Source: Myxococcales bacterium (GTDB lineage Bacteria; Myxococcota; Myxococcia; Myxococcales; Anaeromyxobacteraceae). Taken from it: DNA of 33,828 nt. Where the stretch lies: the NCBI GenBank assembly GCA_038320275.1, contig JBBQEB010000021.1, forward strand, positions 1 through 33,828. The letters run 5' to 3'. The position numbers and the translations under genes are program-made. The notes under the pieces were generated by a model. The model had not been told where the DNA came from, did not search any database, and saw nothing but the letters and a program-made list of their open reading frames with translations. Of the stretch, positions 2,028-29,669 are shown piece by piece (the stretch's first letter is position 1; every line of letters starts with the position of its first letter).

Positions 2028-2069
2028 CGAACCCGGGCGCAAGGCGAGCCACGGGCCTATGGACGTAGC

Positions 2070-2651
2070 ATGAGCGAGACCAGGATCGGCATCATCATCG
2101 GCAGCACGCGGCCAGGGCGGAAGGCGGAGGCGGTCGCACGCTGGGTGCTGGACAACGCGGCGGGACGCAGCGGCGCGGCGTACGAGCTGGTGGACATCGC
2201 CGAGTTCGACCTCCCGCTGCTGGACGAGCCGGTGCCGCCGTCGATGGGGAAGTACACGAAGCCCCACACCAAGGCCTGGTCGGAGCGGATCGCCTCTTTC
2301 GACGGCTACGTCTTCGTCACGCCCGAGTACAACCACGCCACCTCCGGCGCGCTCAAGAACGCCATCGACTTCCTCTACAAGGAGTGGAACGACAAGGCGG
2401 CCGGGTTCGTGGGGTACGGCAGCGCCGGCGGCGTCCGCGCGGTCGAAAACCTGCGCCTGGTGATGGGCGAGCTGCAGGTGGCCGACGTGCGCGTCGCGGT
2501 AGCGCTCTCGCTCCGCACCGACTTCGAGAAGTACACCACCTTCAAGCCGGAGCCGCACCAGGTCGGAAGCCTGCACGCCATGCTCGACCAGGTGGTGGCC
2601 TGGGCGGGGGCGCTGAAGGGGCTGCGGGAATCGCGGACGAAGGCGGTGTGA
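2070..2651 (+). CDS. NADPH-dependent FMN reductase family flavoprotein
   Basis: GSTRPGR, TPEYNH and LKNAID motifs; 193 aa. Confidence 0.93.
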   Translation: MSETRIGIIIGSTRPGRKAEAVARWVLDNAAGRSGAAYELVDIAEFDLPLLDEPVPPSMGKYTKPHTKAWSERIASFDGYVFVTPEYNHATSGALKNAIDFLYKEWNDKAAGFVGYGSAGGVRAVENLRLVMGELQVADVRVAVALSLRTDFEKYTTFKPEPHQVGSLHAMLDQVVAWAGALKGLRESRTKAV

Positions 2652-2660
2652 AGCTCCCCG

Positions 2661-3857
2661 TCACGCCCACGCTTCCACGGCGAACCTCTCCAGCGCATCC
2701 TCGCGCAGCCGGAAGCCGAGCCCCGGCGTGCGCGGGACCACCAGCTCCCCCCCGCGGAGCTCGAGCTGCGTGTCGACGAGCTCCCGGAAGTTCAGGACCT
2801 GCGCGTCGGGAAAGTATTCGACCCAGGTGGCGTTGGCGGTGGAGGCCACCAGGTGCACGTGCAGATCGTGGAACCAGTGCGGCGCCATGGCGACCCCGAA
2901 GCCGGCCGCCGCGGCGGCGATCTTGCGCCACTCGCTGATTCCCCCGCACACGGCCGCGTCGGTCTGGAGGATGGCGGCCGCGCGCTTCTCGAGCAGCTCC
3001 TGGTGGCGCCAGCGGCCCGCCTCGATCTCGCCGGTGGCGACGGGCACGGGGGTCCTGCCGGCGAGCTGCGCGTGGCTCTCGATGTCGTCGGGGCTGAACG
3101 GCTCCTCGATCCACCAGGGGTCGCTGGGCTCCAATCGCTTCATGTACTCGAGCGCGGTTGCCAGATCCTTCCAGGCGTTGTTGGCGTCGAGCGCGAGGAG
3201 GACGTCCGGACCGACGGCCTCGCGGGCGGCGCGGATGCGCGCCTCCTCGCCCTTGGGGTCGAGCCGGCCCACCTTCATCTTCACCGCCCTGAAGCCCATC
3301 TTCACGTAGCCGGCGAGCTCGTCGGCGAGCCCCTGCGGGCCTTTACCCTCCGTGTAGTAGCCTCCGCTGGCGTAGGCGGGGACCGTGGCTGCCCCGGTCG
3401 ATCCCAGGTAGTCGGAAAGCGGGAGCCCCGCCGCGCGCGCGTTCCGATCCCAGAGGGCGATGTCGACGATCGAGAGCGCCCGCATGACCGAGCCGGCGCG
3501 GCCGTGGAGGATGGAATCCTGGTACCCCTCCGCCCACAGGCCCTCCACGTGAAGCGCGCTCCTCCCCAGGAGCGCCGGCGCGAAGAGGAGGCGCACCGCC
3601 GCCGAGACGAGCTCGCCGGCCCGGCTGCCGCCGTAGCAGAAGCCCTGGCCCTCCACACCGTCGGCAGTCCGGATGCGGACGAGCGCGTAGTCGCGCGCGA
3701 GCACGTGCCGCGTGGAGAAGGAGGTGGGCGTGTCGAGCGGCACGCGCACGGTGCGGGCCTCCACCGACACGATCCGGGAGGCCTCGGCGGCCGGGGCTTT
3801 CGCGGCCGGGTTGGCCTCGCCGCGGTCCGTGAGCCCCTTGCGAAGTTCGTTCGACAT
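2661..3857 (-). CDS. Enolase superfamily, mandelate racemase subgroup (probable acid dehydratase/racemase)
   Basis: RBS GGAGG. Motifs DIALWD, YASGGYY, KMK, metal ligands in LDAN / IEEP / TGE, and a His-Asp dyad (QTD...APH). Confidence 0.9.
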   Translation of the reverse strand: MSNELRKGLTDRGEANPAAKAPAAEASRIVSVEARTVRVPLDTPTSFSTRHVLARDYALVRIRTADGVEGQGFCYGGSRAGELVSAAVRLLFAPALLGRSALHVEGLWAEGYQDSILHGRAGSVMRALSIVDIALWDRNARAAGLPLSDYLGSTGAATVPAYASGGYYTEGKGPQGLADELAGYVKMGFRAVKMKVGRLDPKGEEARIRAAREAVGPDVLLALDANNAWKDLATALEYMKRLEPSDPWWIEEPFSPDDIESHAQLAGRTPVPVATGEIEAGRWRHQELLEKRAAAILQTDAAVCGGISEWRKIAAAAAGFGVAMAPHWFHDLHVHLVASTANATWVEYFPDAQVLNFRELVDTQLELRGGELVVPRTPGLGFRLREDALERFAVEAWA

Positions 3858-3889
3858 GTCCGTCCTCCAGTTCGCCTTGCAGTGCCTTG

Positions 3890-4819
3890 CTACCCCAGCC
3901 GCGCCCGCGGGTCCACGCGCGCGAGCCGCTCCAGGAGGAAGTCTACCTCGGCGCGCGCGGCCGGGGTGAGGACCGCGGAGGGCGCACGCTGGGTCTCGTG
4001 GGCGATGGCCCCGCGGCGGCAGAGCACGTACTTGCGCACGGCGAGCCCGACCCCCTGCTGCTGCTCGTAGCGCACGAGCGGCAGGTGGGCGTCGAAGAGG
4101 TCGTGCGCCTCGCCGCGCCGGCCCTCCTTGGCGAGCCGCACGACGTCCACCAGCATGTCCGGGAAGGCATACCCGGTCATGGCGCCGTCCGCGCCGCGCT
4201 GGAGCTCGAGATCGAGGAAGAGCCCGCCATTGCCGCACAGGATGGAGAGCTTTCGCAGGGAGCCCTCCCGCTGGAAGCCGCGGAGCGCGGAGATCTTCTC
4301 CAGGCCCGGCCAGTCCTCGTGCTTCAGCACCTTGCAGGAGGGATGGTCCTGCACGAGCTGGCGGATGACCTTGGGTGTCATCTGCACGCCGAGCGTGAGG
4401 GGGTAGTCCTGCAGCACCCAGGGGACGTCCGCGCCGACCGCCTCCACCGCCCCCCGGAAATAGGCCAGGATCGACTCGTCCGTGCGCAGGTGCGGGGGCG
4501 GCGCGATCATGACCCCGGACGCGCCGCGCTCCATCGCGCCCCGCGCGAGCGCGCGCATGGCCGCGAAGCCGGGAGACGAGACGCCCACCACCACCGGCAC
4601 CTTCCCGGCGCGCGTGACGACGTCCGAGGTGAGCCGCAGCGCCTCCTCCGGCTCGAGCTTGGGCGCCTCGCCCATGATGCCGAGGATGGTGAGCCCGGCG
4701 ACGCCGCAGCCCAGGTAGAAGTCCGTCACTCGCGCGACGGACTCATGGTCGAGGCGTCCGTCCGGGTGGAAGGGCGTGACCGCGATGGTGAAGACGCCAC
4801 CCGCGTCAGCGGTCAGCAC
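3890..4819 (-). CDS. DHDPS/NAL-family class I aldolase or dehydratase (not DapA)
   Basis: VTPF..DG.LD; GIMGE in place of GxTGE; QDYP; candidate Schiff-base Lys in LKHED; GADGAMTG. The GTG start overlaps the upstream gene end. Confidence 0.88.
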   Translation of the reverse strand: MLTADAGGVFTIAVTPFHPDGRLDHESVARVTDFYLGCGVAGLTILGIMGEAPKLEPEEALRLTSDVVTRAGKVPVVVGVSSPGFAAMRALARGAMERGASGVMIAPPPHLRTDESILAYFRGAVEAVGADVPWVLQDYPLTLGVQMTPKVIRQLVQDHPSCKVLKHEDWPGLEKISALRGFQREGSLRKLSILCGNGGLFLDLELQRGADGAMTGYAFPDMLVDVVRLAKEGRRGEAHDLFDAHLPLVRYEQQQGVGLAVRKYVLCRRGAIAHETQRAPSAVLTPAARAEVDFLLERLARVDPRARLG

Positions 4820-5531
4820 GCTCCGGCGCCTCCTTCGCCTTCCACGCCTCGTAGCGCGCCTTCGTCTCCGCGTTCATGGGGTAGAGGCCCGGGAGCGCCA
4901 CGCCGCGCTCCACCTCGCCCATGATCCAGCCCTCCATGCGCTCCTGTTCCGGCGCGGTCTGGAGCAGATCGGAGACGAAGGCCGCCGGGATCACCACCGC
5001 CCCGTCGTCGTCCGCCACGACCACGTCGTCCGGGAAGACCGCAACGCCGCCGCAGCCTATCGGCTCGCCCCAGTTGGCGAAGGTGAGCCCCGCCACCGAA
5101 GGCGGTGCCGCCGCGCCCTGGCACCAGACGGGGAGCCCGCTCGTGAGCACGCCCGCGAGGTCGCGCAGCACGCCGTCCGTGACGAGCCCCGCCACTCCCC
5201 GCTTCGCCATCCGGGAGGAGAGGATGTCGCCAAAGATGCCCGCGTCGGTGACGCCCATCGCGTCCACCACCGCGATGCAGCCCTCGGGCATCGCCTCGAT
5301 GGCGGCGCGGGTGGAGCGCGGGGAGGACCACGATTCCGGCGTGGCGAGGTCTTCGCGCGCGGGCACGAAGCGCAGCGTGAAGGCGCGGCCGACGCGCCGT
5401 CCCTGGCCCTCGCGGATGGGCCTCGTCCCGCGCATCCACACGTTCCGCAGCCCCTTCTTGAGGAGCAGGGTGGTCAGGGTGGCGGTGGTGACCTTCGAGA
5501 GCGTTTCCACGGCACTGCGGTCGAGCTCCAT
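4806..5531 (-). CDS. RraA-like / HMG aldolase family protein
   Basis: RBS AAGGAG. Motifs GRAFTLRF, VVDAMG, GIFGDIL, VTDGVLRD and VVADDDGAVVIP. Confidence 0.9.
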   Translation of the reverse strand: MELDRSAVETLSKVTTATLTTLLLKKGLRNVWMRGTRPIREGQGRRVGRAFTLRFVPAREDLATPESWSSPRSTRAAIEAMPEGCIAVVDAMGVTDAGIFGDILSSRMAKRGVAGLVTDGVLRDLAGVLTSGLPVWCQGAAAPPSVAGLTFANWGEPIGCGGVAVFPDDVVVADDDGAVVIPAAFVSDLLQTAPEQERMEGWIMGEVERGVALPGLYPMNAETKARYEAWKAKEAPERADR

Positions 5532-5572
5532 GCACTCTCCTTCGATTGAACGATCGCGATCGGGTGATCGCG

Positions 5573-6358
5573 TCAGATGCTCGCGATCATCCCGCCATCG
5601 ACCCGCAGCGTCGAGCCGGTGATGAAGGCGGCGCGCTCGCTGGTGAGGAAGGCGACCGCGTCGGCGTACTCGTCGGGGCGGCCGTAGCGGCCGGCGGGGA
5701 TGCCGGCGGTGCTCTCCGCCTCCACCACCTCCACGGTCTTCCCCTCCCGCTTGGCGCGCGCCTCGTCGAGGAAGCGGGTGCGCCCGGTGGCGATGCGTCC
5801 CGGCAGGATGACGTTGACCGTCACGCCGTCCTTGGCCACCTCGCGGGCGAGCGACTTCGACCAGCCCACGAGCGAGAGCCGGAGCGCGTTCGAGATGGCG
5901 AGGTTGGCGATGGGCGCGACCACGCCGGAGGAGGTGCTGGTCACGATGCGGCCCCACCGGCGCTCTCGCATTCCGGGCAGCACGCGGTCGGTGATGGCGA
6001 TGACGGAGAGCACCATCGCCTGGAAGCTGCGCGTCCACAGCGCCGGGTCCTGCCCGAAGGCGGGCGTGGGGGGCGGACCGCCGGTGTTGTTGACGAGGAT
6101 GTCCACCGGCCCGAAGCGCTCCTCGATCTTGCGGACCGAGGGCTCGACGAGCGCGAGGTCCGCGAGGTTCCACGTCAGCGCGAGCCCCTCGGATCCCTCC
6201 CCTTCGACATCCGTGATCGTCGCGGCGAGCGCGTCGGCCGAGATGTCGCCCACCGCCACCCGGGCGCCTTCCCTTCCCAGCGCCCGCGCGATGGCGCGCC
6301 CGAGGCCGCCTCCTCCGCCCAGCACCAGCGCCGTCTTCCCACGCAGCCCGAGGTCCAT
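5573..6358 (-). CDS. SDR family oxidoreductase (atypical active site)
   Basis: MDLGLRGKTALVLGGGGGLG, NNTGGPP, SNALR in place of YxxxK, and ITGSTLRVDGG. Confidence 0.9.
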   Translation of the reverse strand: MDLGLRGKTALVLGGGGGLGRAIARALGREGARVAVGDISADALAATITDVEGEGSEGLALTWNLADLALVEPSVRKIEERFGPVDILVNNTGGPPPTPAFGQDPALWTRSFQAMVLSVIAITDRVLPGMRERRWGRIVTSTSSGVVAPIANLAISNALRLSLVGWSKSLAREVAKDGVTVNVILPGRIATGRTRFLDEARAKREGKTVEVVEAESTAGIPAGRYGRPDEYADAVAFLTSERAAFITGSTLRVDGGMIASI

Positions 6359-6380
6359 GTTCGCGCCCTCCCGCGCCCTT

Positions 6381-7355
6381 CTATTCGCGCCCGCCACGTC
6401 CGTGCCAGGGCGTTTCCGGCACGGGGGTGCGTGGCCCCTCGCCCGCGAACCAGGCGACCAGGTTGTCGACCACGAGCTTTCCCATGATCGCGCGGGTGTG
6501 CTGCGTGGCGGAACCGGAGTGCGGGACGAGCACGACGCGTTCGCTGGCGAGAAGGGCGGCGGGGACGCGCGGCTCGTCGGCGAAGACGTCGAGCCCAGCC
6601 CCGAGCAGCGCGCCCGAGCCGAGCGCCTCCAGCAGGGCAGCCTCGTCCACCACCGACCCGCGGGCGACGTTCACCAGGATGCCCTGCGGCCCGAGCGCAG
6701 CGAGCACCTCCCGGCCTACCAGGCCGCGCGTGGCTCCTCCGCCCGGGACGATGGCGACGAGGGTGTCCACCTCGCGGGCCATCCCGAGGAGCTCCGGGTA
6801 GTGCCGGTAGGGCACCTCGGGCCGCGGCCTGCGGGCGTGGTAGACGACCGGCACGTCGAAGGCCGCGATGCGCTTCGCGATGCGCTGGCCGATGCGCCCC
6901 ATCCCGAGGAGCCCCACCGTCCGGCCGCGCAAGGTCGGGCTGAGCGGGAAGGTTCCCCGCAGCCAGCGGCCCTCGCGCACGAAGCGGTCGGCCTGCGGCA
7001 GGCGCCGCACCGTCGCCAGGAGGAGGCCCACCGTGAAGTCGGCCACCTCGTCGTCGAGCACGTCCGGCGTGTTGGTCACCACGATCCCGCGCCGGACCGC
7101 GACGGAGAGGTCGATGGAGTCGTAGCCGACGCCGAAGTTCGCGACGATCTCGAGGCGTGGCAAGAGCTCCAGGAGCGCTGCGTCGAGCGGCTCGCGCCCG
7201 CGGGTGGCGACGCCGCGGATGTCCGCGCCGTGCTCCTCGGCCAGGCGCCGAGCGCCGTGGTCCGCGGCGCGATGGACGACGAAGTGGACCGCGAGCGCAT
7301 CCTCCACGGCGGGCATCATCTCGCCCATGCTGAGGATCGCGGGCCGCGCGCTCAT
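6381..7355 (-). CDS. D-isomer-specific 2-hydroxyacid dehydrogenase (glyoxylate/hydroxypyruvate reductase-like)
   Basis: GVGYD, TNTP, GMGRIG, NVARG, GLDVFADEP and PHSGSAT, giving the Arg/Glu/His catalytic set. Confidence 0.93.
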   Translation of the reverse strand: MSARPAILSMGEMMPAVEDALAVHFVVHRAADHGARRLAEEHGADIRGVATRGREPLDAALLELLPRLEIVANFGVGYDSIDLSVAVRRGIVVTNTPDVLDDEVADFTVGLLLATVRRLPQADRFVREGRWLRGTFPLSPTLRGRTVGLLGMGRIGQRIAKRIAAFDVPVVYHARRPRPEVPYRHYPELLGMAREVDTLVAIVPGGGATRGLVGREVLAALGPQGILVNVARGSVVDEAALLEALGSGALLGAGLDVFADEPRVPAALLASERVVLVPHSGSATQHTRAIMGKLVVDNLVAWFAGEGPRTPVPETPWHGRGGRE

Positions 7356-8623
7356 CCGGCCGCCCGCGACAGCCGGGGCTGGAGCCTCCCGTCGCCGTCG
7401 AAGGCGAGCGTGCGCGGCGCGGGGTCTACCGTGACGCCGGGTCGCCCCTCCAGCTCGCGCGCGATGGGTCCCGATACGAGGCTCTCCTCGAGGAAGAGCG
7501 TGTTCGGGATGACCACGATCCGGAGCCGCTCGGGCGCCACGCCCGCCAGGCTCCGCAGCGCGGCCGCCACCAGCGCCCCCTCGGTGTCGAAGGTCATGGG
7601 GATGGCCGCCCGCACGACGAAGGTGCTGGTGAGGCAGTTGAGGTAGGTCTTCTCGCGGTCGACGCGATCGACCAGCGCCTTCGTGACGAAGTCGGCCAGC
7701 CCCACCCCGGTCGCGTTGCCGTGCGAGGCCTCCGAGAGCCCCAGCACCGCCAGCCGCTTCACCCGCGGGGCCTCCGGCTCGGGTTGCCCCTGGATACGCA
7801 GCCGGCCCACCACGTTGGTGTCGATCCCGGTCCCGCTGAAGTTCTTTCCCATCTCCTCGATGACGAGGAGGTCGAGCTCCTCGTCAGGCAGCGCGGGGCT
7901 GAGCGTCTTCGACCAGGCGAGGAGCTTCGCCTCCTCCGCCACCAGCGTTTCGGTGGCGAGGCCGCGCACCGCCGCGGTCTCCTCGTAGGCGTTCTCGACC
8001 ACCGCCAGCCCGCCGACCACCGGCAAGGCGGCCAAAACGGCGCGGCCGAGATCCACCAGGAGGCGCGGCAGCTCGCGCGGCCCGAGCTGGTGGAACCCCT
8101 GTGCGCCGAGCGGGCCGCCCAGCCCCACCACCACCATCTTCACGATCCCGCTCTCGAGCTCACCCTTGAACGAGGTGTGGGTCTTCACCCGGTTCACCGG
8201 GAGGATGGCATCCACCTCCAGCGCGGAGCGAAGCGTGTAGAGCGGGAGGCCGCTCGGGCCCTCGCCGATGAGGACGCTGTCGACACAGGTGCGCACCGGC
8301 GCGCCCAGCTCCGCCTCGGTGACGCCGAGGGAGGCGAGGAGCTCTGCCTGTCCGGCCTCGGTGCCGCCGCCGTGGCTCCCCATGGCGGCGAGCAGAGAGG
8401 GCTCGGCTCCCAGGCCGCGCACGTGCGCGATGGCCGCCCGCAGGAGGGAGGCGTAGCCGGCGATGCCGCGGCTGCCGACCAGGATCCCAACCCGCTGTCC
8501 CGGGCGCACCGTCCGGCCAAGGCCGAGCTTCCCCAGTTCCTCCTCGGCGGCCCGGCCCACGTCGTCCACCCGCGGGCGAGGAAAGGTCTGGCGGACGTGG
8601 AAGAGCGGGGGGAGGGCGGTCAT
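7352..8623 (-). CDS. Lactate racemase (LarA) N-terminal domain / DUF2088-type protein
   Basis: GSRGIA, AMGSHGGGT, NRVKTHTSF, ESG, GKNFSGTGIDTNVVGR and SHGNATGVG; 423 aa. 4-bp ATGA overlaps with both neighbours. Confidence 0.82.
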   Translation of the reverse strand: MTALPPLFHVRQTFPRPRVDDVGRAAEEELGKLGLGRTVRPGQRVGILVGSRGIAGYASLLRAAIAHVRGLGAEPSLLAAMGSHGGGTEAGQAELLASLGVTEAELGAPVRTCVDSVLIGEGPSGLPLYTLRSALEVDAILPVNRVKTHTSFKGELESGIVKMVVVGLGGPLGAQGFHQLGPRELPRLLVDLGRAVLAALPVVGGLAVVENAYEETAAVRGLATETLVAEEAKLLAWSKTLSPALPDEELDLLVIEEMGKNFSGTGIDTNVVGRLRIQGQPEPEAPRVKRLAVLGLSEASHGNATGVGLADFVTKALVDRVDREKTYLNCLTSTFVVRAAIPMTFDTEGALVAAALRSLAGVAPERLRIVVIPNTLFLEESLVSGPIARELEGRPGVTVDPAPRTLAFDGDGRLQPRLSRAAG

Positions 8624-11600
8624 GGGAGGGCCTCGATGGCATCGCCGCGCGGGACGGCTTGCCCACCGCGGGCCCGGAGTTGCCGCAGCAGCGCCTGCGC
8701 CGGATGCGGGATGCGGATGCCGTCCACGATCTTGGCCTGCGAGCGGCAGGAGTAGCCCGTCGCGAGCGCGTCGGTCGCGCCCGCGGGCCCGGCCAGGTGG
8801 CGGCCCCAGCTCATGCGGTAGATGGCGGTGGACGTGTCGCGGTGGTGTGCCAGGTGCCCGTAGGTTCCCGCCATGCCGCAGCAGCCCACCGCCTCGATGC
8901 GGAGCCCGAGCCCGAACCGCTCGAACACCGCCTGCCACTGCCCCAGCGAGGCAGGGGCGTTGGTGCGCTCGGTGCAGTGGCCGAGGAGCCGGTAGGTGCG
9001 CTGCACCTGCGCGCGGGGCCAGGAGGAGACGTGGCTCGCGAGCCACTCCTGGAGGAGCAGGACGTTCGGGGCGCGCTCCTTGCCCAGCGCTCCGGCGTAC
9101 TCGCTGCGATAGGTGAGCGACATGGCGGGATCGATCCCCACCAGCGGCACGCCGGTGCTGCCGAGGCCCTGCAGGACCGCCGCGTTCTTCGCCGCGGCGC
9201 GCCCGAAGGCGAAGCGGAAGCCGTGGATGTGGAGCGCCTTGCCGTTCGGGCGCAGCGGCGCCAGCCAGGGCCGCACGCCGAGCTCGCGCAGGAGATCGAG
9301 CACGTCGAGCACGAGCCCAGTCTCGAAGTAGCGGGTGAAGGCGTCCTGCACGATGACGACGCTCCGCGCGCGCTCGGGGGGCGAGAGCGCTCGCAGCGCG
9401 GCAGGCGTCGCCACCTCCACCCCGCGGGCCGCGAGCTCCCGGCCAAACCGCACCCGCGATAGGAGCGGGACGGAGGTGAGCCCGACGAGCCGCACCAGCG
9501 CTCGTCCCACCGCGCTGCCGGCGACGGCGTTGTAAACCGGCGCGAGCCGTGCCAGGAGCGGGAGCACGCTCTCCAGCCGTCCGATGAGGTGATCGCGCAG
9601 CGGCCGCAGGAAACGGCCGTGGTACAGGCCGATGAAGCGGGACCGCAGCTCGGTGACGTCCACCTTGATCGGGCACTGGCCCGAGCACGCCTTGCACGAG
9701 AGGCAGCCGTCCATGGCCTCCATCACCTCGTGCGAGAAGTCGCGCCTGCCGAGCGCGCGGCCGAGGGTGTGCGCGGCCCGAAGCGGCAGGGTCCAGATCG
9801 CCGAATGGGAGCGCCGCTCCTCCGCGAGAGGATCGCGCCCCGCCCCCACGAGCAGCCGCAGCCACTCGCGGAGCAGGACCGCGCGGCCCTTGGGCGAGTG
9901 ACGCCGGTCGCGCAGCGCCTTCCAGGACGGGCACATGGCGCTGTCCGCGTCGAAGTCGTAGCAAAGCGCGTTGCCGTTGCACTGGAGCGCGCCCTCGAAG
10001 CTGTGGCGCGTCTCGATGGGGATGGGGCGCTCGGCCTGCCCGCGGGTGGGGAGGCCGTCGATGGTGAGGAGCTGTCCACCGGGCGGGGTCGCGATCTTCC
10101 CCGGGTTGAGCTGGTTCCGCGGATCGAAGGCCACCTTGAGCGCCTGGAGCGCCGGATAGAGCGGCCCGAAGAACGCCGGCGCGTACTCGGATCGAACGCC
10201 CTTGCCGTGCTCGCCCCAGAGGAGCCCGTCGTACTTCTTGGTGAGCCGCGCCACCTCGTCCGTCACCAGGCGAATGAGCGGCTCCTGCGCGGGGTCGCGC
10301 ATGTCCACGGCCGGGCGGACGTGCAGCACGCCCGCATCGACGTGCCCGAACATGCCGTAGGCGAGGCCGCGCGCGTCGAGGGCTGCGCGCAGCTCGGCGA
10401 TGTAGTCGGCGAGATGGGCGGGGGGAACGGCCGTATCCTCCACGAACGGGATGGGCCGAGCCTCCCCCGGGCGATTTCCGAGCAGCCCCACGCCCTTCTT
10501 TCGCATCGACCAGACGCGCTTCACGTCGGCGCCGCGCGCGACCGTGTGTCCGCGCCGGCCGCGCGCCCCGCCCTCCGCCGCGAGCGCCGCGAGGAGCCGC
10601 GTCAGGGGCTCCTCCACCTCCTCCGGCGTCTGCCCCACGAGCTCGATGAGGTTCACCGCCTGAGCGGGGCCCTCCGGGTCGTCGGGGAAGAAGGCGCGCA
10701 CCTCGTGCCAGACGATGTCCTTGCGCGCCAGGTCGAGCACGGTGCCGTCCACCGTCTCGATGGACGAGGGAGCAAAGCCCATGAGCGCCGGCGCGTCCCG
10801 CAGCGCGCCGTCGAAATTCCCGTAGCGCAGGCACACCAGCGCGGTGTGTCGCGGCAGGGGGACGGCGTTCAGCTTCGCCTCCACCACGATGCCGAGCGTC
10901 CCCTCCGAGCCGCACAGGACGGAGTTGAGGTCGAACCGGCCCCGCGCGTCCCGCACGTGCGCGAGGTCGTAGCCGGTGAGGCAGCGGTTGAGCCGCGGAA
11001 AGTGCTGCCGGACCAGCTCCTCGTTGTCGCGGTGGATGGCGTCGAGCGCCCGGTGCACCGCGCCGGCGTGGTCGCCGCGCGCCTTCACGCGGGCCAGCTC
11101 CTCATCGTCCATGGGCGAGGAGCGCCAGAGCGTGCCGTCCGCCAGCACGGTGGCGAGCTCGAGGACGTGGTCGCGCGTCTTGCCGTGGACGCACGAGCCC
11201 TGGCCGCTGGCGTCGGTGTTCACCATCCCGCCCAGCGTGGCGCGGTTGGAGGTGGAGAGCTCGGGGGCGAACAGGAGCCCGTGCGGCGCGAGCGCGGCGT
11301 CGAGCTGGTCCTTCACGACGCCCGCCTCGACCCGAGCCCAGCGCCCCGCTGGATCGATCTCCAGGATGCGATTCATGTGGCGGGATAGGTCCACGACCAC
11401 GCCCGTGGTGAGCGACTGGGCGTTGGTGCCGGTGCCGCCGCCGCGGGCGGCGAGGTGCACCCCGGCGAAGCGAGGCTCGGCTGCGAGGCGCATCACCCGC
11501 TGCACGTCCTCGGCATGGCGCGGGTAGAGGATGGCCGCCGGCGGGAGCTGGTAGATGGAGTTGTCGGTGGCGAGGACCGTCCGGTCGCCGTGGCTCAGCG

Positions 11601-11694
11601 AGACCTCTCCGTCGAAGGCCCCGGCGCGGAGCGCCTCCGCGAAGGCTCGATCGATGCCCGGGGGCGCCGGAGGTGGTGGGATGCGCGGGATCAT
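8620..11694 (-). CDS. ydiJ: YdiJ-like FAD- and Fe-S-binding 2-hydroxyacid dehydrogenase (D-2-hydroxyglutarate dehydrogenase-like)
   Basis: TDNSIYQ, RGGGTG, GSEGTLG, GHVDAGVLHVRP, GEHGKG, CNGNALC...MCP, CLSCKACSGQCP, GCCG and GYSCRSQ; 1024 aa. Confidence 0.9.
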   Translation of the reverse strand: MIPRIPPPPAPPGIDRAFAEALRAGAFDGEVSLSHGDRTVLATDNSIYQLPPAAILYPRHAEDVQRVMRLAAEPRFAGVHLAARGGGTGTNAQSLTTGVVVDLSRHMNRILEIDPAGRWARVEAGVVKDQLDAALAPHGLLFAPELSTSNRATLGGMVNTDASGQGSCVHGKTRDHVLELATVLADGTLWRSSPMDDEELARVKARGDHAGAVHRALDAIHRDNEELVRQHFPRLNRCLTGYDLAHVRDARGRFDLNSVLCGSEGTLGIVVEAKLNAVPLPRHTALVCLRYGNFDGALRDAPALMGFAPSSIETVDGTVLDLARKDIVWHEVRAFFPDDPEGPAQAVNLIELVGQTPEEVEEPLTRLLAALAAEGGARGRRGHTVARGADVKRVWSMRKKGVGLLGNRPGEARPIPFVEDTAVPPAHLADYIAELRAALDARGLAYGMFGHVDAGVLHVRPAVDMRDPAQEPLIRLVTDEVARLTKKYDGLLWGEHGKGVRSEYAPAFFGPLYPALQALKVAFDPRNQLNPGKIATPPGGQLLTIDGLPTRGQAERPIPIETRHSFEGALQCNGNALCYDFDADSAMCPSWKALRDRRHSPKGRAVLLREWLRLLVGAGRDPLAEERRSHSAIWTLPLRAAHTLGRALGRRDFSHEVMEAMDGCLSCKACSGQCPIKVDVTELRSRFIGLYHGRFLRPLRDHLIGRLESVLPLLARLAPVYNAVAGSAVGRALVRLVGLTSVPLLSRVRFGRELAARGVEVATPAALRALSPPERARSVVIVQDAFTRYFETGLVLDVLDLLRELGVRPWLAPLRPNGKALHIHGFRFAFGRAAAKNAAVLQGLGSTGVPLVGIDPAMSLTYRSEYAGALGKERAPNVLLLQEWLASHVSSWPRAQVQRTYRLLGHCTERTNAPASLGQWQAVFERFGLGLRIEAVGCCGMAGTYGHLAHHRDTSTAIYRMSWGRHLAGPAGATDALATGYSCRSQAKIVDGIRIPHPAQALLRQLRARGGQAVPRGDAIEALP

Positions 11695-11697
11695 GCG

Positions 11698-13032
11698 TCA
11701 GTGCGGCGAAGGGCTCGTGACGGCCGCCGCGCCGCGACGGGCCACGGCGCTGGCGACGAGGATCCCGATCGCTCCCGCCGCGGTGAGGAACGCGAGCGGA
11801 AGCAGTCCGAGCGCGTAGCTGTGGGTCCTGTCCTTGATGACCCCGAGCAGGTAGGTGCCCACGAAGCCGCCCAGGTTGCCGATGGCGTTGATCTGCGCGA
11901 TGCCCGCGGCGGCCGAGGAGGCGGCGAGCCAGCCTGTGGAGAGCGCCCAGAAAGGTCCCTTGAAGCAGTAGGTCCCGATGACCGCCGCGCAGAGGATGAC
12001 GATCGTTGCGGCGAGGGAGCCCCCCACGAAGCCCGCCGCGACGAGGCTCACCGCGATCAGCGCGGAGGGGATCGCGGTGTGCCACACCCGCTCGCGGGTC
12101 CGGTCGGAGTGGCGGCCCCAGAGCACCATCGCCACGGAGGCCACGCCGAACGGCACCGAGTTGAGGAGGCCGGTCTGCATGTTGGTGAGGCCGAACGACT
12201 TGATGATCTGGGGCTGCCAGATGGAAAGGCAGACGCTCGCGCCGGTGCCTCCGGCGTACACGATCGCGGCGACGAGCACGTAGGGGTTCGAGAGCACGCG
12301 CCAGAGGGAACTGTGCGGCACGGTGGTCTTCGCCTTCATCTCGCCCTCCAGCGTCCGGACGAGCCAGGCGCGCTCCTCCGGGAGGAGCCACTTGGCGTCG
12401 TTGGGTCCGTTGCGCAGGACTGCGAGCGTCAGCACGCCCAGGATCACGGCGGGCACTGCCTCCACGATGAACATCCACTGCCACCCGCGCAGCCCGGAGG
12501 TGCCGTGCAGCCCCAGCAGAGCGGCCGAGATCGGCGAGCCGATGAAGCTCGACGCCGGGATGGCCACCATGAAGATGGCGATGATGCGGGCGCGGTGCTT
12601 CGCCGGGAACCAGTAGGTCAGGTAGAGGATGACGCCCGGGAAGAACCCCGCTTCGGCGGCGCCGAGCAGGAAGCGGAGCCCGTAGAAGGACTTCGGCCCC
12701 ACCACCAAGGCCATACAGCCCGCGATGATGCCCCAGGTGATCATGATGCGCGCGATCCAGACTCGCGCGCCCACCTTCTGCATGATGAGGTTGCTCGGCA
12801 CCTCGAGGAAAAAATACGAGATGAAGAAGACCGCGCCGCCGAAGCCGAACTGGGACGAGGACAGCCCCACGTCCTTGTTCATCTGCAGCGCGGCGAAGCC
12901 CACGTTCACGCGGTCGACGTAGGCGATGAAGTAGCAGAGCATGAGGAACGGGATGAGCCGCCAGGTCACCTTCTTGAGCGTGGCGGTCTCCAGGGCGGAT
13001 ACGGCCGGCATCACTGCGGGTGCGCTTGGCAT
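11698..13032 (-). CDS. MFS transporter, anion:cation symporter family (TtuB tartrate-transporter-like)
   Basis: WRLIPFL, DRVNVGFA, EVPSN, WIARIMITWG, RFLLGAAEAGFFPG, LRGWQWMF and INAIGNLGGF. Confidence 0.92.
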   Translation of the reverse strand: MPSAPAVMPAVSALETATLKKVTWRLIPFLMLCYFIAYVDRVNVGFAALQMNKDVGLSSSQFGFGGAVFFISYFFLEVPSNLIMQKVGARVWIARIMITWGIIAGCMALVVGPKSFYGLRFLLGAAEAGFFPGVILYLTYWFPAKHRARIIAIFMVAIPASSFIGSPISAALLGLHGTSGLRGWQWMFIVEAVPAVILGVLTLAVLRNGPNDAKWLLPEERAWLVRTLEGEMKAKTTVPHSSLWRVLSNPYVLVAAIVYAGGTGASVCLSIWQPQIIKSFGLTNMQTGLLNSVPFGVASVAMVLWGRHSDRTRERVWHTAIPSALIAVSLVAAGFVGGSLAATIVILCAAVIGTYCFKGPFWALSTGWLAASSAAAGIAQINAIGNLGGFVGTYLLGVIKDRTHSYALGLLPLAFLTAAGAIGILVASAVARRGAAAVTSPSPH

Positions 13033-13061
13033 CGGGATCCTCGCCTCACGTCTTCGGACCA

Positions 13062-13140
13062 GGTTCGACCTGCCCGTCCACCCTCGGGATCCGCCTGCCG
13101 CGGGCGGGCGCCGCCGAGGGCGAACGGGATCTCGAAAACC
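13062..13140. repeat. About 80-nt imperfect inverted repeat between the fumarase and MFS genes
   Basis: Nested arms GGTTCGA/TCGAAAACC, CCCGT/ACGGG, CCCTCGG/CCGAGGG and CGCCTGCC/GGCGGGCG around a 3-nt loop. Confidence 0.6.
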
Positions 13141-13143
13141 TCG

Positions 13144-14766
13144 CTACAGCCCCAGCTTCTTGAAGAAGTCGTTCCCCTTGTCGTCCACCAGGATGAAGGC
13201 CGGGAAGCTCTCGACCTCGATCCGCCACACCGCTTCCATCCCGAGCTCGGGGAAGTCGATGCACTCCACCTTCTTGATGTTCTCCTCCGCCAGCACCGCC
13301 GCCGGACCGCCGATGGAGCCGAGGTAGAAGCCCCCGTACTTCTTGCAGGCGTCGGTCACCTGCTGGCTGCGGTTGCCCTTCGCGATCATCACCATCGACG
13401 CGCCGTGCGACTGGAGCAGTTCGACGTAGGAGTCCATGCGTCCGGCGGTGGTCGGCCCGAACGAGCCAGAGGCCTTGCCCTTGGGCGTCTTCGCCGGACC
13501 GGCGTAGTACACCGGGTGGTCCTTCAGGTACTGCGGCACGCCCTTGCCCGCGTCGATGAGCTCCTTGAACTTGGCGTGCGCGATGTCGCGGGCGACGACG
13601 ATGGTGCCGTCGAGGAGCAGCGGGGTGGAGACGGGGTGCTGGGAGAGCTCCGCCTGGATCTCCTTCATCGGCCGGTTCAGGTTCACGCGCACGCCGTGCT
13701 CGTGCTTGCCGGTCCGGTACGGCGCCGGGATGAGGCGGCCCGGATCGTGGTCCAGCTCCTCGATCCAGATGCCATCCCTGTCGATCTTCGCCTTCACGTT
13801 GCGATCGGCGGAGCAGGAGACGGCGATGCCGATGGGGAGGGAGGCGCCGTGGCGCGGCAGGCGGACCACCCGCACGTCGTGGGCGAAGTACTTGCCGCCG
13901 AACTGGGCGCCGATGCCGAGCTTGTTGGCCGCCTGGAGCAGTTTCTCCTCGAGCTCCAGGTCGCGGAACGCCACGCCCTCGCCGCCACCGGTGGTGGGCA
14001 GGCCGTCGTAGTAGCGGGTGGAGGCGAGCTTCACCGTCTTGAGGCAGGAGTCGGCCGAGGTGCCGCCGATGGCGACGCCGATGTGGTACGGCGGGCAGGC
14101 GGCGGTGCCGAGGTACTTGAACTTCTCGACGAGGAAATTCTCCAGCTTCTCGGGCGTCAGGGTCGCCTTCGTCTCCTGGAAGAGCATCGTCTTGTTGGCC
14201 GAGCCGCCACCCTTCGTGACGAAGAGGAATTTGTACTCGGCGCCCGGCGTCGCGAGGATGTCGATCTGGGCCGGCAGATTGTTGCCGGTGTTCTTCTCCT
14301 CGTACAGGTTGAGCGCGCTCGTCTGCGAGTAGCGCAGGTTCTCCTGGGTGTACGTCTCGTAGATGCCCTTGGAGAGCCACTCCTCGTCGTTCGCTCCCGT
14401 CCAGACCTGCTGCCCCTTCTTCGCGTAGACCGTGGCGGTGCCGGTGTCCTGGCAGATGGGCAGCTCCCCGCGCGCGGAGATCTCGGCGTTCTTCAGGAAG
14501 GCGAGCGCGACGCCCTTGTCGTTCTGCGATGCTTCGGGGTCGTCGAGGATCTTCGCCACCTGCTCGTTGTGGGACGCGCGCAGGAAGAAGGAGCACTCGC
14601 GAATGGCCTCGCGCGCGAGAAATTCGAGCGTGGAGGGCTCCACCCGGAGCATCTCCTTGCCCTCGAAGATGCCCGTCGTGATGCCCTCCTTGCCGAGGGG
14701 GCGGAACCTCGTCGGATCCTTCGCGAGGGGGAACGGGTCCTGATACTGGAACGCTGGCGTCGCCAT
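13144..14766 (-). CDS. fumA: Class I (Fe-S) fumarate hydratase, FumA/FumB-like
   Basis: [46 protein letters not shown] and DDKGNDFF; 540 aa; RBS GGAGAGG. Confidence 0.95.
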
Positions 14767-14945: not shown

Positions 14946-17195
14946 ATGAGCGAACTTCCCGCAACCTGGACCGAAAAGCTGCTGGACGTCACCTCGGCAT
15001 TCTCGCGAGCCCGCACCACCCAGGAGGTGGGAGAGGTGGCGGTCGGGTTGGGCGTGGAGGCGCTCGGTGCCGTCGCTGGCGCGCTGGCGCTGGTCTCCCG
15101 GGACGGCGCGGAGCTGTACCTCGTGGCGGGATCGAGCCTGCCCGGCGGAGCGGAGACGCGGACGCGGCGAGGGGTCGAGGAGAACGACCTCCTCTCGGAC
15201 GCCGCGCGCGAAGGCGCGACCGTCACCATCGAGAGCCCGGAGGAGCTCGCGCGCCGCTACCCTGACGCTGCTCGTGGGCTGCCCTGGGGCGAGGGCACCC
15301 GCATGGCGCTTCCGCTTGCCGGCGGAGGGCGGCTCCTGGGAGTCCTGGGGCTCGGGTTCGCCACCTGGACCGAGCTGCCCGGCACCTCGCGCGCCTTCGC
15401 CCAGGCGCTCGCCTCGCAGTGCGCGCAGGCCCTCGAGCGCGCGCGGCTGCTCGACGCCGAGAAGGAGGCGCGCAGGCGCCTCGCGATCATGGCGGACGCG
15501 GCCGAGGCGTTCAGCGCCCCCGACATGTCGCTGAAGGGAGTGCTGGAAGCCATCGCGAGGAGGACTTCCGAGGCGACGGGAGACGGGTGCGTCCTGCGCC
15601 TCCTCTCCGACGACGGGGTCTGGCTCGACGTGAGGGCCGCCTGGGCTCCCCCCGGGGCGGCGGAAAGCCCGTCCGCACAGGCCGGGCGTATCCCGGCGGC
15701 CGAGGGGCTCGCCGGGCACGCCCTCCGCTCGCTCGAGACTCTCTCCATCCCAGCGGTCGATCCAGCCTCCCTGGCGGAGGCGTCGGACGAGGAGCGCCGG
15801 GCATGGCTGGGCGAGGCGCGCGTCCACAGCCTGATCCTCGCCCCGCTGCACGTGGCAGGGCGTGCGCTCGGCACGCTGTCGGTCGCACGCACGCGACCGC
15901 ACGAGCCGCACGAGCAGGAGGACCGCCTGCTGGTGGAGGGCCTCTCCGGCCGCGCCGCCTCGGTGATCCAGAAGGCGCGACTGTACGACGAGATCCGGCG
16001 CAACGGCCGGCTGCTCGAGGAGACCTTGGCCCGCGAGCAGGCGGCGCGCAAGGAGGCGGAGACCGCCAACCGCTCCAAGGACGAGTTCCTCGCGATGCTC
16101 GGCCACGAGCTGCGCAACCCCCTCTCGCCGATGCTCACCGCGCTCGAGCTCATGAAGCTCCGCGGCGGCGAGGCCCATCAGCGCGAGCGCACCATCGTCG
16201 AGCGGCAGGTGCAGCACCTGGTGCGGCTGGTCGACGACCTGCTCGACGTCTCCCGCATCACCCGGGGAAAGGTCGCGCTGAAGCGGCGGCCGGTGGAGCT
16301 TCACGAGGTGGTCGCGAGCGCGCTGGAGATGGCGAGCCCGCTCCTCGAATCTCGCCGCCACCGGCTCGTGACGAGCGTCCCCCGTGCCGGGCTCCTGGTC
16401 GAGGCGGATCCCCACCGGCTGGCCCAGGTGTTCGCGAACCTGCTCATGAACTCTGCCAAGTACACCGAGCCCGGCGGCACGGTGGAGGTCCGGGGCGACA
16501 GGGAGGCGAGCCAGGTGGTCTTGCGCGTGCGCGACTCGGGGATGGGTATCGCGCCCGACCTGCTCCCCCGCGTCTTCGACCTGTTCGTGCAGGCCCACAG
16601 CGCGCTCGACCGCTCGCAAGGGGGCCTCGGCCTCGGGCTGACCATCGTCCGAACGCTGGTGCAGATGCACGGCGGCGTCGTACGCGTGGCGAGCGCCGGG
16701 CAGGGGAAGGGCAGCGAGTTCACGGTGGAGCTGCCGGCCCTGGACGCATCGGCGCTCGTCCCCAGGCCGCCTCCCCCCACCACCGCGCCGAGGGGGTCAC
16801 TGGCGGTGGCCCAGCGGGTGCTCGGGGTGGACGACAACGTGGACGCCGCGGAGGCGCTCGGCGAGGCCCTCTCCGCGCTGGGCTACTCGACGGCGACGGC
16901 CTTCGACGGCCCGGGGGCGCTGGACGCGGCGGCAAAGGAGCCGCCTCAGGTGGCCTTCCTCGACATCGGCCTGCCGGTCATGGACGGGTACGAGCTGGCG
17001 CGGAGGCTGCGCGAGCTGCTCGGCCCGTCGGTGAAGCTGGTGGCGCTCACTGGCTACGGGCAGGACCACGACCGAGCCCGCTCGCTGGACGCTGGCTTCG
17101 ACGAGCACCTGGTGAAGCCGGTCGAGCTGGCGCGCATCGAGGCGCTGCTCCACCGCGTGGCCCTCCCGCTGGGAGGCGCGGCGAGCAACGGGTGA
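14946..17195 (+). CDS. Cytoplasmic hybrid sensor histidine kinase (GAF-GAF-HisKA-HATPase-REC)
   Basis: H-box [14 protein letters not shown]-box [14 protein letters not shown] and GLGLGL. Receiver motifs VDDN, FLDIGLP, LTG and KP. Two GAF-like N-terminal segments and no obvious TM helix. Confidence 0.93.
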
Positions 17196-25466: not shown

Positions 25467-26654
<1,188 letters not shown>

Positions 26655-26660
26655 GGCCGC

Positions 26661-27830: not shown

Positions 27831-27836
27831 CGTTCG

Positions 27837-29491: not shown

Positions 29492-29669
29492 CGTGAAGCT
29501 CCTAATCCGGCCCCCCGCGCGGTGCCGGGCCTCCGCGCCTGCACCCGGGCTGCTCCCCTGCAGAGGGGGGGGCCCGCGCGGCGAAGCGGACGGTTCGGCC
29601 TCCCTCGCGCGCAGACCTGCACCCGTGGGCACCTTGCAAGCTCCGGCCGCGGTGCGCAACCCATGGAGC

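Follow-up and report, generated by a model that had tools for sequence, protein, structure and literature searches.

Which acid would be taken up and broken down, and by what route, by the nine co-oriented genes at positions 2661–14766 of this window (the whole analysed stretch of 33,828 nucleotides from a Myxococcales bacterium)? The earlier note had proposed an undescribed catabolic pathway for a hydroxy or sugar (di)acid, headed by a class I fumarase and complete from uptake to cleavage.

Layout and conservation of the gene cluster

All nine open reading frames are intact and uninterrupted on the minus strand (Table 1), as had been claimed, and the family assignments of the earlier note hold in Pfam/NCBIfam profile searches, Pfam supporting the class I fumarase, ACS-type MFS, D-2-hydroxyacid dehydrogenase (2HADH), SDR, DHDPS-family and MR-subgroup calls. 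With the chosen starts, the reported tight packing of the eight genes from the MFS transporter onward is confirmed (gaps of -14 to +41 bp). The MFS and YdiJ genes are 3 bp apart, 4-bp overlaps join YdiJ to the LarA homologue (LarAH) and LarAH to 2HADH, the first gene of the core, and there follow gaps of 22 bp (2HADH-SDR) and 41 bp (SDR-RraA), a 14-bp overlap (RraA-DHDPS) and a gap of 32 bp (DHDPS-enolase); 111 bp separate fumarase and MFS. By this spacing, the eight tightly packed genes are a putative operon, one that likely serves the uptake and breakdown of a sugar diacid. Contigs from a public run span the DHDPS-enolase junction (3300–4882), the 2HADH-LarAH-YdiJ stretch (6567–9960) and the YdiJ-MFS and MFS-fumarase junctions with zero differences from the window; they stem from one run, probably of the source sample, and are therefore not independent.

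Table 1. Features of the locus, with positions in the window
Feature	Positions	Strand	Length or extent	Basis or remark
MR-subgroup enolase (acid-sugar dehydratase/epimerase type)	2661..3857	-	398 aa including scar	Pfam/NCBIfam
Deletion scar of an IlvD/EDD (PRK06131-type) dehydratase gene	3828..3857	-	first ten codons	in frame with enolase
DHDPS/NAL-family protein	3890..4819	-	309 aa	orthologue of uncharacterised PDB 3DZ1
RraA-like protein, PRK08245, HMG-aldolase fold	4806..5531	-	241 aa	NF006093 over cut-off
Atypical SDR	5573..6358	-	261 aa	S156-N157-x-x-R160 replacing Tyr-x-x-x-Lys
GhrB-type D-2-hydroxyacid dehydrogenase (2HADH)	6381..7355	-	324 aa	closest solved structures
Group-22 LarA homologue, predicted nickel-pincer (NPN) 2-hydroxy-acid epimerase/racemase	7352..8623	-	423 aa	NF052515
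YdiJ-family FAD/Fe-S D-2-hydroxyglutarate dehydrogenase (predicted)	8620..11694	-	1024 aa	NF049975 over cut-off
ACS-type MFS anion transporter	11698..13032	-	444 aa	MFS_1
Class I fumarate hydratase	13144..14766	-	540 aa	Pfam/NCBIfam

The fumarase did not hold its place as head of the pathway. It is a resident housekeeping gene, present as a single copy in 20 of 22 same-family genomes (78–86% identity among the loci shown), and this MFS lies within about 1.5 kb of it at none of 19 kin loci; no FumC scored over cut-off in the genome. The fumarase is probably a bystander beside which the operon sits.

The five-gene core was found whole at one other locus, within a limited sampling: an alphaproteobacterium (L206) keeps the order 2HADH (65%), SDR (68%), RraA (75%), DHDPS (72%), IlvD and MR enolase (63%). 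The full eight-gene form was found in no other genome searched. Only two others among the 401 genomes of the phylum searched carry this enolase, one in the order IlvD-MR (79%)-ACS MFS, the other as 2HADH (72%)-IlvD-TTT-MR (78%). The same IlvD type flanks the enolase at 8 of 27 orthologue loci, and at 7 of the 10 with at least 66% identity; relatives of the MFS (44–46%) do so at four, and GarD/UxaA-like dehydratases, SMP-30 lactonases and NAD-dependent epimerase-family genes are further neighbours. Orthologues of 2HADH (65–72%) occur in L105, L206 and L216, while those of RraA mostly lie without the core (SDR at 8, DHDPS at 7, 2HADH at 1 and MR at 1 of 80 metagenome loci, many of them short). 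The nine genes are not one conserved unit: LarAH and YdiJ adjoin 0 of 27 enolase, 0 of 13 DHDPS and 0 of 17 SDR orthologue loci, and fumarase 0 of the 27 enolase loci. An uncharacterised acid-catabolic operon nevertheless stands, with its core order kept in L206 and its relatives among acid-sugar genes, and literature searches found no named pathway with this combination.

A deleted dehydratase gene and the enzymes of the putative operon

The N-terminus of the enolase is a remnant of an IlvD/EDD gene, which the earlier note had overlooked. The scar is identical at 23 of 30 nucleotides to the IlvD start of L217 and at 22 of 30 to that of L105. Across the genome's 8.19 million six-frame residues its motif is found a single time, none of 119 enolase homologues has it, and its profile score is matched by 0 of 2476 ORF N-termini. 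On this sequence evidence, the IlvD/EDD gene has been deleted, leaving ten codons on the enolase. The flanking IlvD type at other loci is PRK06131, nearest to L-arabinonate dehydratase (AraD). With the gene deleted and neither an aldehyde dehydrogenase nor a regulator gene in the operon, the "full route" previously claimed is not supported. The loss of IlvD may leave the operon non-functional.

The enolase aligns with 2PP0 at K193-x-K195, D224, E251, E277, D300, H327 and E347, which supply the KxK motif, the three Mg ligands and the His-Asp dyad of the MR subgroup; six counted catalytic or metal positions, D300 and E347 being outside the count, are kept in at least 28 of 28–29 orthologue matches. 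Its orthologues reach 73–82% identity, and its best solved relatives (5OLC, 2PP0) only E 1e-52. It is not a TalGal, GudD, GarD, RhmD, DgoD or ManD enzyme by equivalog cut-offs (best score among TalGal, GudD, RhmD, DgoD and ManD 233 versus 500 bits).

The DHDPS protein matches 3DZ1 (E 7e-136) far ahead of 7C0C/3FKK (E 3e-26). Its Q137, K166 and E168, kept in 14 of 14 orthologue matches, correspond to Gln143, Lys171 and Glu173 of KdaD, whose residue roles have been described (PMC9795676). The KdaD C5 base Glu200 is absent, N197/G198 standing at the two glutamate positions, with Gly in 14 of 14 matches. By its residues this is thus a dehydratase-type (KdaD) active site minus the C5 base. A KdgD, DHDPS or NAL aldolase was rejected, with Gln at the catalytic Tyr and all seven NCBIfam models below cut-off (KdgD 40 versus 374 bits); Met49 takes the place of the KdgD Thr that binds the C6 carboxylate. 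KdgD-type chemistry uses decarboxylation in place of C5 proton abstraction, and changes at both glutamates gave KdaD variants a low Kdg activity (PMC13398020).

The RraA protein scores 347 bits on NF006093/PRK08245 (cut-off 208), and a likely FlDet orthologue encoded beside alginate lyases (L261), 39% identical over 232 aa, scores 343. The window protein is far closer to this likely orthologue than to HMG/CHA aldolase (E 3e-15), and membership of the latter (LigK) was rejected at 81 versus 305 bits (TIGR02798) and 85 versus 179 (NF006731). D102, R123, D124 and E200 are retained in 93 of 93 orthologue matches. D102, a Ser in the FlDet-like protein, is shared with the aldolase, where Asp-102 presumably has a functional role. 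The other three align with Arg-123 and the metal ligands Asp-124 and Glu-199 of that enzyme (PMC5065237). FlDet converts 2-keto-3-deoxy-D-glucarate into alpha-KGSA (alpha-ketoglutaric semialdehyde), is inactive on 4-hydroxy-2-oxoglutarate, and has an orthology band of 63–80% identity (PMC8563752). In our tree, which carries long-branch warnings and represents FlDet by the 39% proxy, the window protein falls in a branch apart from the FlDet-like pair.

The nearest solved structures of 2HADH come from the 5J23 set of NADPH-dependent glyoxylate/hydroxypyruvate reductases (E 1e-95). The SDR is not a classical one, the Tyr-x-x-x-Lys catalytic motif being absent, and Ser-Asn-x-x-Arg is kept in 18 of 18 orthologue matches. 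The best NCBIfam matches of the MFS, HpaX and TIGR00893, are both below cut-off. YdiJ passes the NF049975 equivalog over its full length (1430 bits, cut-off 1350) with Cys motifs present, and occurs in 2 of 61 genomes searched, its own included; it is thus rare in the lineage, and here sits inside a catabolic operon. Since characterised YdiJ enzymes are strict for D-2-hydroxyglutarate and reject tartrate and malate (PMC9504171), these two substrates, suggested previously, are unlikely.

LarAH has no Pfam match and passes NF052515 (group 22) at 453 bits (cut-off 400). Its predicted model (pLDDT 87) adopts a two-domain LarA fold (Z 18.6–22.0 to 12 LarA entries, next 6.2; Foldseek E 2e-11 and Z 22 to LarA/Mar2), although identity to solved LarA structures is 12–18% and an Asp72 equivalent is lacking. 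R52, H84, H149, K162 and H178, invariant in 37 LarAH sequences, are equivalents of R75, H108, H174, K184 and H200 by motif matching to the 20 group-22 rows of Dataset S2. With these NPN-binding and catalytic residues, and with a genome that scores above cut-off for larC and larE and whose larB was recognised by eye in the ORF adjoining larC, LarAH is a predicted NPN isomerase. Group 22 is labelled "unknown function" (Desguin 2020), and no substrate assignment for it was found in the literature consulted. Acid-sugar dehydratases lie at 6 of 9 other group-22 loci inspected, among them a GudD glucarate operon and a locus with the same IlvD type (64%) and larBCE; of the nine, one has a four-carbon acid-sugar kinase and one is uninformative.

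A proposed hexarate route and its alternatives

We tentatively favour, at somewhat less than even confidence, a mosaic eight-gene operon that imports a hexarate and degrades it to 2-oxoglutarate, and that has lost its IlvD/EDD gene by in-frame deletion. The ACS transporter would import the diacid, LarAH would invert C2 and so make a second epimer usable, and the enolase would dehydrate the hexarate to 2-keto-3-deoxy-hexarate; where the operon is complete, IlvD would be another dehydratase at the entry. Each of two enzymes, the RraA/FlDet-type one and the KdaD-like one without C5 base, would take water and CO2 off one diastereomer, yielding alpha-KGSA. As the operon has no aldehyde dehydrogenase, alpha-KGSA would pass to D-2-hydroxyglutarate by way of the GhrB-type reductase and the atypical SDR, and YdiJ would then oxidise this to 2-oxoglutarate. 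The final step of the scheme is its weakest; the fumarase would remain a resident neighbour outside the pathway. No precedent was found for the passage from alpha-KGSA to D-2-hydroxyglutarate, and no operon enzyme has a characterised close orthologue. Aldehyde dehydrogenases whose best match, below cut-off, is alpha-KGSA dehydrogenase adjoin SDR-RraA-DHDPS in L099 and lie near a kin YdiJ in L258; in our genome, which is 91% complete, none of the three full-length aldehyde dehydrogenases scanned (of five matches) has this best match.

The oxidative pathway for hexarates, with GudD/GarD, KdgD and alpha-KGSA dehydrogenase, shares the ACS transporter, the enolase-family and DHDPS-family dehydratases and the predicted end product 2-oxoglutarate, but here the enolase is none of GudD, GarD and TalGal dehydratase, the DHDPS protein has no KdgD Tyr, a KGSA dehydrogenase is missing, and RraA, SDR, 2HADH, LarAH and YdiJ are added. 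The oxidative DEHU pathway of Flavobacterium sp. UMI-01 (FlDet/FlDeg; PMC8563752) has the RraA-family enzyme in common; it differs in that the window protein belongs to another branch, the entry would be an imported diacid, and alginate lyase, DEHU oxidoreductase and FlDeg are absent. The Weimberg pathway resembles the locus in the deleted IlvD type and the Gln, Lys and C3-base Glu of KdaD, whereas the window lacks the C5-base glutamates, IlvD, aldose dehydrogenase and lactonase.

The retro-aldol cleavage proposed before is now the less probable reading, since dehydratases are the nearest characterised kin of both the RraA and the DHDPS protein. A pentarate or hexarate would here become a 4-hydroxy-2-oxo diacid, which RraA would cleave to pyruvate and glyoxylate or tartronate semialdehyde; the GhrB-type enzyme would reduce the aldehyde, and the DHDPS protein would merely invert or hydrate C4. 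This suits the residues shared with the aldolase LigK/GalC (PDB 3NOJ), the reductase relatives of 2HADH, the lack of an aldehyde dehydrogenase and the weak epimerisation of pentarates by a LarA homologue (PMC11770544). Yet the family has a closer characterised relative, a dehydratase/decarboxylase that does not act on 4-hydroxy-2-oxoglutarate; the scheme leaves a strict D-2-hydroxyglutarate dehydrogenase without a role, and an internal stop interrupts the malate synthase match of the genome. We consider this route rather unlikely. LigK/GalC itself shares the RraA fold with the window protein and is only distantly related to it, and the locus has no aromatic ring-cleavage genes.

Less probable still is a decaying island, in which IlvD was the sole entry dehydratase, the enolase is an epimerase only and the core no longer supports growth on the substrate here. 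The genome has no other PRK06131 member over cut-off, related loci carry the GntR or LysR regulator genes that the operon lacks, and L250 combines a group-22 LarAH with the same IlvD type without such an enolase, as if LarAH and enolase were interchangeable epimerases. However, all eight genes are uninterrupted, the deletion preserved frame, start codon and ribosome-binding site, GC3 (0.93–0.95) agrees with that of the resident fumarase, and the enolase retains both bases and all metal ligands. We give the same low credence to two unrelated modules in one transcript: YdiJ and LarAH would scavenge D-/L-2-hydroxyglutarate as electron donors, and another substrate would be handled by the five genes downstream. 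YdiJ and LarAH overlap and are not seen beside the core elsewhere, the closest named LarAH matches are mostly from Sporomusaceae, and the closest LarAH locus (65%) has a TAXI transporter and a GlcD/GlcF-like dehydrogenase pair, a mark of the hydroxyglutarate-racemase-like group 11 (PMC7583248 Table S1); but LarAH also overlaps the first core gene, and acid-sugar operons are where other group-22 genes lie, in one case together with the same IlvD type and in another with a PRK08245 gene. It is improbable that the substrate is a hydroxylated amino acid or a lactam (hydroxyglutamate type) entering the same 2-oxo-acid core after deamination. Genes for amino-acid transport, for aminotransferases or related to lactams do surround several cores (a polar amino-acid ABC system in L206; PLP aminotransferase, alanine-racemase-family and glutamate-cyclase-domain genes elsewhere), but the transporter in the window is an ACS anion carrier, the window encodes no aminotransferase, deaminase or lactamase, and enolase and LarAH orthologues occur in acid-sugar contexts.

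What the operon may mean for its enzyme families

Acid-sugar operons of unassigned function are common, and the surprise is therefore moderate; the scar makes this genome's version a derived one, unsuitable as pathway reference. The hexarate reading includes, as a doubtful extension, a pathway of new design: a nickel-pincer aldarate C2-epimerase would feed an uncharacterised enolase, RraA-fold and KdaD-like enzymes would split two 2-keto-3-deoxy-hexarate diastereomers, and alpha-KGSA would reach 2-oxoglutarate without aldehyde dehydrogenase through D-2-hydroxyglutarate, by way of the GhrB-type reductase and the tyrosine-less SDR. If true, this would be the first function for LarA group 22, and the recruited LarAH/YdiJ and lost IlvD would record a substrate change in one genome. 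The operon is useful for assigning four orphan enzyme subfamilies, widespread and without assigned reaction, that it gathers in a short stretch: the LarA homologues of group 22, the main RraA branch of PRK08245 (which the plasmid records seen annotate as "ribonuclease activity regulator"), 3DZ1-type DHDPS proteins and Ser-Asn-x-x-Arg SDRs. Parts of it are present in cultured strains of Paraburkholderia, Ensifer and Loktanella. Given the contexts, the substrates to screen come down to a dozen aldarates with their 2-keto-3-deoxy products, and each orphan subfamily is therefore directly testable.

A probable eight-gene operon beside a resident fumarase

The nine co-oriented genes singled out in the earlier note, which run in the order class I fumarase, MFS (ACS-type transporter), YdiJ, LarA homologue (LarAH), 2HADH, SDR, RraA, DHDPS, and enolase (MR subgroup), are real and uninterrupted. 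From the fumarase downward they are spaced by 111, 3, -4, -4, 22, 41, -14, and 32 bp, so that the eight genes beginning with the transporter, packed at -14 to +41 bp as had been noticed, lie as close as in an operon, and the fumarase stands apart. Pfam and NCBIfam agree with the family assignments first proposed, and sharpen three of them: in NCBIfam, YdiJ passes the D-2-hydroxyglutarate dehydrogenase equivalog, LarAH scores over the cut-off of 'nickel pincer cofactor-dependent isomerase, group 22', and PRK08245 accepts the RraA protein, which fails the models for LigK (HMG/CHA aldolase). Four junction regions are crossed unchanged by contigs of one run, probably that of the source sample. A promoter and terminator scan with a sigma-70 model, uninformative at 72% GC, returned 0 promoters and one unrelated terminator; the 111-bp fumarase-MFS spacer has a folding z of -1.87 (11 of 200 shuffles were equally good) and no U-tract. 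Neither GC nor GC3 distinguishes the operon.

Of 22 same-family genomes, 20 hold the fumarase as a single copy (24/37 of all genomes searched, own included), the window's MFS lies within ~1.5 kb of it in none of 19 kin loci, and no FumC over cut-off was found in the genome. In a set of 61 genomes (own included), 2 carry a close RraA orthologue, 3 a group-22 LarAH, and 2 YdiJ; the enolase is present in 3 of the phylum's genomes, with 401 searched. The names of its closest matches suggest a Myxococcota-like lineage. The fumarase is a resident gene and the remaining eight are not. A tartrate or malate pathway headed by this fumarase, among the options of the earlier note, is unlikely in view of the fumarase distribution, the kin loci, and YdiJ specificity, as characterised YdiJ enzymes oxidised only D-2-hydroxyglutarate among twelve acids tried, and not malate or tartrate (PMC9504171, accessible text). 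The eight genes very probably form an acid-catabolic operon of undescribed substrate.

Features of the operon, its surroundings, and related loci
Feature	Location	Strand	Remarks
Fumarase	window 13144-14766	minus	
Enolase	window 2661-3857	minus	first ten codons at 3857-3828
SDR and NADPH-dependent FMN reductase	window 1233-2651		converge on enolase end, 9 bp apart
GAF hybrid histidine kinase	window 14946-17195		divergent from fumarase; none found beside kin fumarases
HupE/UreJ-family protein	window 20650-21762		12 kb from nickel-pincer gene; family linked to nickel uptake
Aromatic amino-acid catabolic cluster	window 25467-29600	minus	HPPD-like glyoxalase-fold gene; companions presumably homogentisate dioxygenase, GST-type isomerase, FAH-family genes
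Bacterial topoisomerase IB	window 29391-30680		
LarA-domain gene	own genome, G000:C63:6261-6872		
LarA-domain gene	own genome, C108:11393-11935		
Malate synthase, sole match	own genome, G000:C15:5721-6344		internal TAG
Group-22 LarAH locus L225	other genome, G014:C26, ~234000-254000		LarAH between TTT transporter and glucarate dehydratase over cut-off; GarL/HpaI-like aldolase upstream

A conserved core and a lost dehydratase gene

Loci for comparison came, among others, from a DHDPS search of 251 alphaproteobacterial genomes (16 matched) and an enolase search of 201 Burkholderiales genomes (11 matched), with 10 regions fetched in each case. In one of them, L206, a GntR gene and an amino-acid ABC system are followed by 2HADH (65%), SDR (68%), RraA (75%), DHDPS (72%), an IlvD/EDD dehydratase, and enolase (63%), so that the window's order is kept with a single gene added. 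IlvD-enolase-ACS MFS (L217) and 2HADH-IlvD-TTT-enolase (L216) are the arrangements in the two kin genomes where the enolase occurs. In co-occurrence counts, which are biased to their seeds because the loci were seeded with enolase, RraA, or DHDPS, which use analyst-chosen thresholds, and which exclude our own loci and the duplicate L218, the IlvD type neighbours the enolase orthologue at 8 of 27 loci (at 7 of 10 where identity is >=66%). RraA flanks 11/13 DHDPS and 16/17 SDR orthologues, partly since many loci were RraA-seeded; most RraA orthologues are without the core, with SDR at 8 and DHDPS at 7 of 80 loci. Among the loci compared, the whole five-gene core recurs once, in L206; LarAH, YdiJ, and fumarase do not recur with it, and none of them lies beside the enolase, DHDPS, or SDR orthologues compared (n = 27, 13, and 17).

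Around the RraA orthologues of the metagenome loci L105-L184, a small conserved ORF 3' of RraA and a divergent gene occur in 38/80 and two more genes in 28/80; these are presumably cupin and 5-oxoprolinase (PxpABC) subunits, and in L138 they are co-oriented and run into SDR-RraA. Small Burkholderiales genomes of 1.6-2.1 Mb (L199-L201, L204) retain the enolase, next to 3-hydroxyacyl-CoA-dehydrogenase-family, Ldh-2-family, and lactonase genes and TTT/TAXI transporters.

The window's enolase has 398 aa versus 378 in its closest relatives. Its first ten codons match the start of the IlvD type (23/30 nt to L217, 22/30 nt to L105), and the codons that follow are similar to the native start of the L217 enolase. 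With its Met, the motif turns up a single time among the genome's 8.19 million six-frame residues (3 times if Met is left off), and it is found in 0 of 119 enolase homologues; against a profile from six IlvD starts, its score is reached by 0 of 2476 ORF N-termini (longest possible starts used). The rest of the genome (91% complete) has no PRK06131 member over cut-off. We conclude that an in-frame deletion removed the IlvD gene and that the enolase now uses the IlvD start. Misassembly is an unlikely reason for the missing gene, as a separately assembled contig, though probably from the same sample, spans the junction unchanged. The deleted type is nearest to L-arabinonate dehydratase. The operon is real but derived.

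Active sites and the group-22 LarA homologue

The LarAH model (pLDDT 87) structurally matches only LarA entries (Z 18.6-22, next 6.2); PDB sequence searches gave nothing real, the repeat-protein matches being spurious, and the protein is placed by fold search only. R52, H84, H149, K162, and H178 do not vary over 37 sequences; judged by motif, they are the counterparts of the five residues that every one of the 20 group-22 rows in Desguin's Dataset S2 retains. The genome has larB, larC, and larE, which need not serve the group-22 protein alone, since two further LarA-domain genes are present. PMC7583248 lists group 22 without assigned function and names SDR, IlvD, and TRAP genes in its neighbourhood, and the accessible parts of this and two other papers (PMC11770544, a 2024 follow-up, and PMC12611868) assign it none. 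Nine other group-22 loci were inspected: six have acid-sugar dehydratases, one a four-carbon acid-sugar kinase, one is uninformative, and the closest (L223, 65%) has GlcD/GlcF-like genes. LarAH therefore fits an acid-sugar theme, though it could just as well have come in as a pair with YdiJ. Two of the six are L225, where LarAH belongs to a GudD operon and is a clean candidate aldarate 2-epimerase, and L250, a Loktanella operon in which the deleted IlvD type (64%) stands with larBCE and a UxaA-like gene. Proteobacterial group-22 genes in L250, L256, and L259 accompany larB/C/E, UxaA-like genes, and IlvD/EDD dehydratases.

The KxK motif, three metal ligands, and His-Asp dyad of the enolase, which we take to be its catalytic and metal-binding residues, align with L-talarate/galactarate dehydratase; the protein falls far under every cut-off of the named acid-sugar dehydratase families. 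Its orthologues adjoin GarD/UxaA-like dehydratases, lactonases, NAD-dependent epimerase-family genes, and acid transporters. The DHDPS protein is an orthologue of the uncharacterised 3DZ1 (PDB), with L-KDA dehydratases as next matches, and shares their Gln, Lys, and C3-base Glu, replacing the aldolase Tyr. It has Asn-Gly where those enzymes have two glutamates, including the C5 base (PMC9795676, accessible text). In KdgD, according to the accessible part of PMC13398020, decarboxylation takes the place of the C5 step, and variants of KdaD (an L-KDA dehydratase) altered at these glutamates gained low Kdg activity; Met49, at the position where a Thr of KdgD binds the C6 carboxylate, counts against KdgD-like chemistry. 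The 2HADH comes nearest to NADPH glyoxylate/hydroxypyruvate reductases, and in the SDR Ser-Asn-x-x-Arg replaces Tyr-x-x-x-Lys in 18/18 matches.

A possible hexarate route and its rivals

As a whole, the operon is best read, tentatively and at somewhat less than even chance, as a route from a hexarate to 2-oxoglutarate, each step of which we infer. The MFS would import the hexarate, LarAH would invert its C2, and the enolase would dehydrate it; the RraA and DHDPS proteins would dehydrate and decarboxylate the two 2-keto-3-deoxy diastereomers, giving alpha-ketoglutaric semialdehyde (alpha-KGSA), which would become 2-oxoglutarate through D-2-hydroxyglutarate. This last step is the weakest, because the operon has no aldehyde dehydrogenase and alpha-KGSA dehydrogenase is never the best match of the three full-length ones in the genome. 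Aldehyde dehydrogenases with that best match (under cut-off) lie beside the core in L099 and near a kin YdiJ in L258.

Retro-aldol cleavage to pyruvate and a C2 or C3 aldehyde, akin to the ending envisaged in the earlier note, seems unlikely; the relatives of the RraA protein bear on it and on the hexarate route alike. The RraA protein keeps the aldolase Arg and metal ligands (roles in PMC5065237, accessible text), and LigK is distant. FlDet, an RraA-family protein of 237 aa, converts 2-keto-3-deoxy-D-glucarate to alpha-KGSA and is inactive on 4-hydroxy-2-oxoglutarate, KDG, KDPG, and DEHU (PMC8563752, accessible text). Its proxy here, a 238-aa Arenibacter protein whose gene lies beside two alginate-lyase-family genes and with an N-terminus like that of published FlDet, passes PRK08245 and shares 39% identity with the window's protein over 232 aa. 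The latter lies on a separate branch from the FlDet-like pair, in a tree with long-branch warnings where no starred set holds it, and the proxy has Ser in place of D102; the window protein's reaction may therefore differ from that of FlDet. In 4/5 Flavobacteriaceae genomes no match was found. L256, one of the group-22 loci above, further carries a PRK08245 gene that belongs to the FlDet-like branch.

Two further explanations are still more doubtful, and equally so. The operon might be a decaying island, given the lost dehydratase gene; its remaining genes are uninterrupted. An independent 2-hydroxyglutarate module might stand in front of the core; the acid-sugar setting of most group-22 loci fits the hexarate route. 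A hydroxy-amino-acid substrate, to which the ABC system of L206 could point, is the least probable, with enolase and LarAH orthologues set among acid-sugar genes.

The operon would work like the known oxidative aldarate and Weimberg pathways, yet belongs to none of them; its eight-gene form occurs only once among the loci compared. Literature searches for the gene combination or its markers, with subscription journals mostly outside their coverage, found no description of the cluster; the NphT paper (PMC13524815, accessible text) concerns another fold. Above all, the operon offers a way to test four orphan subfamilies.
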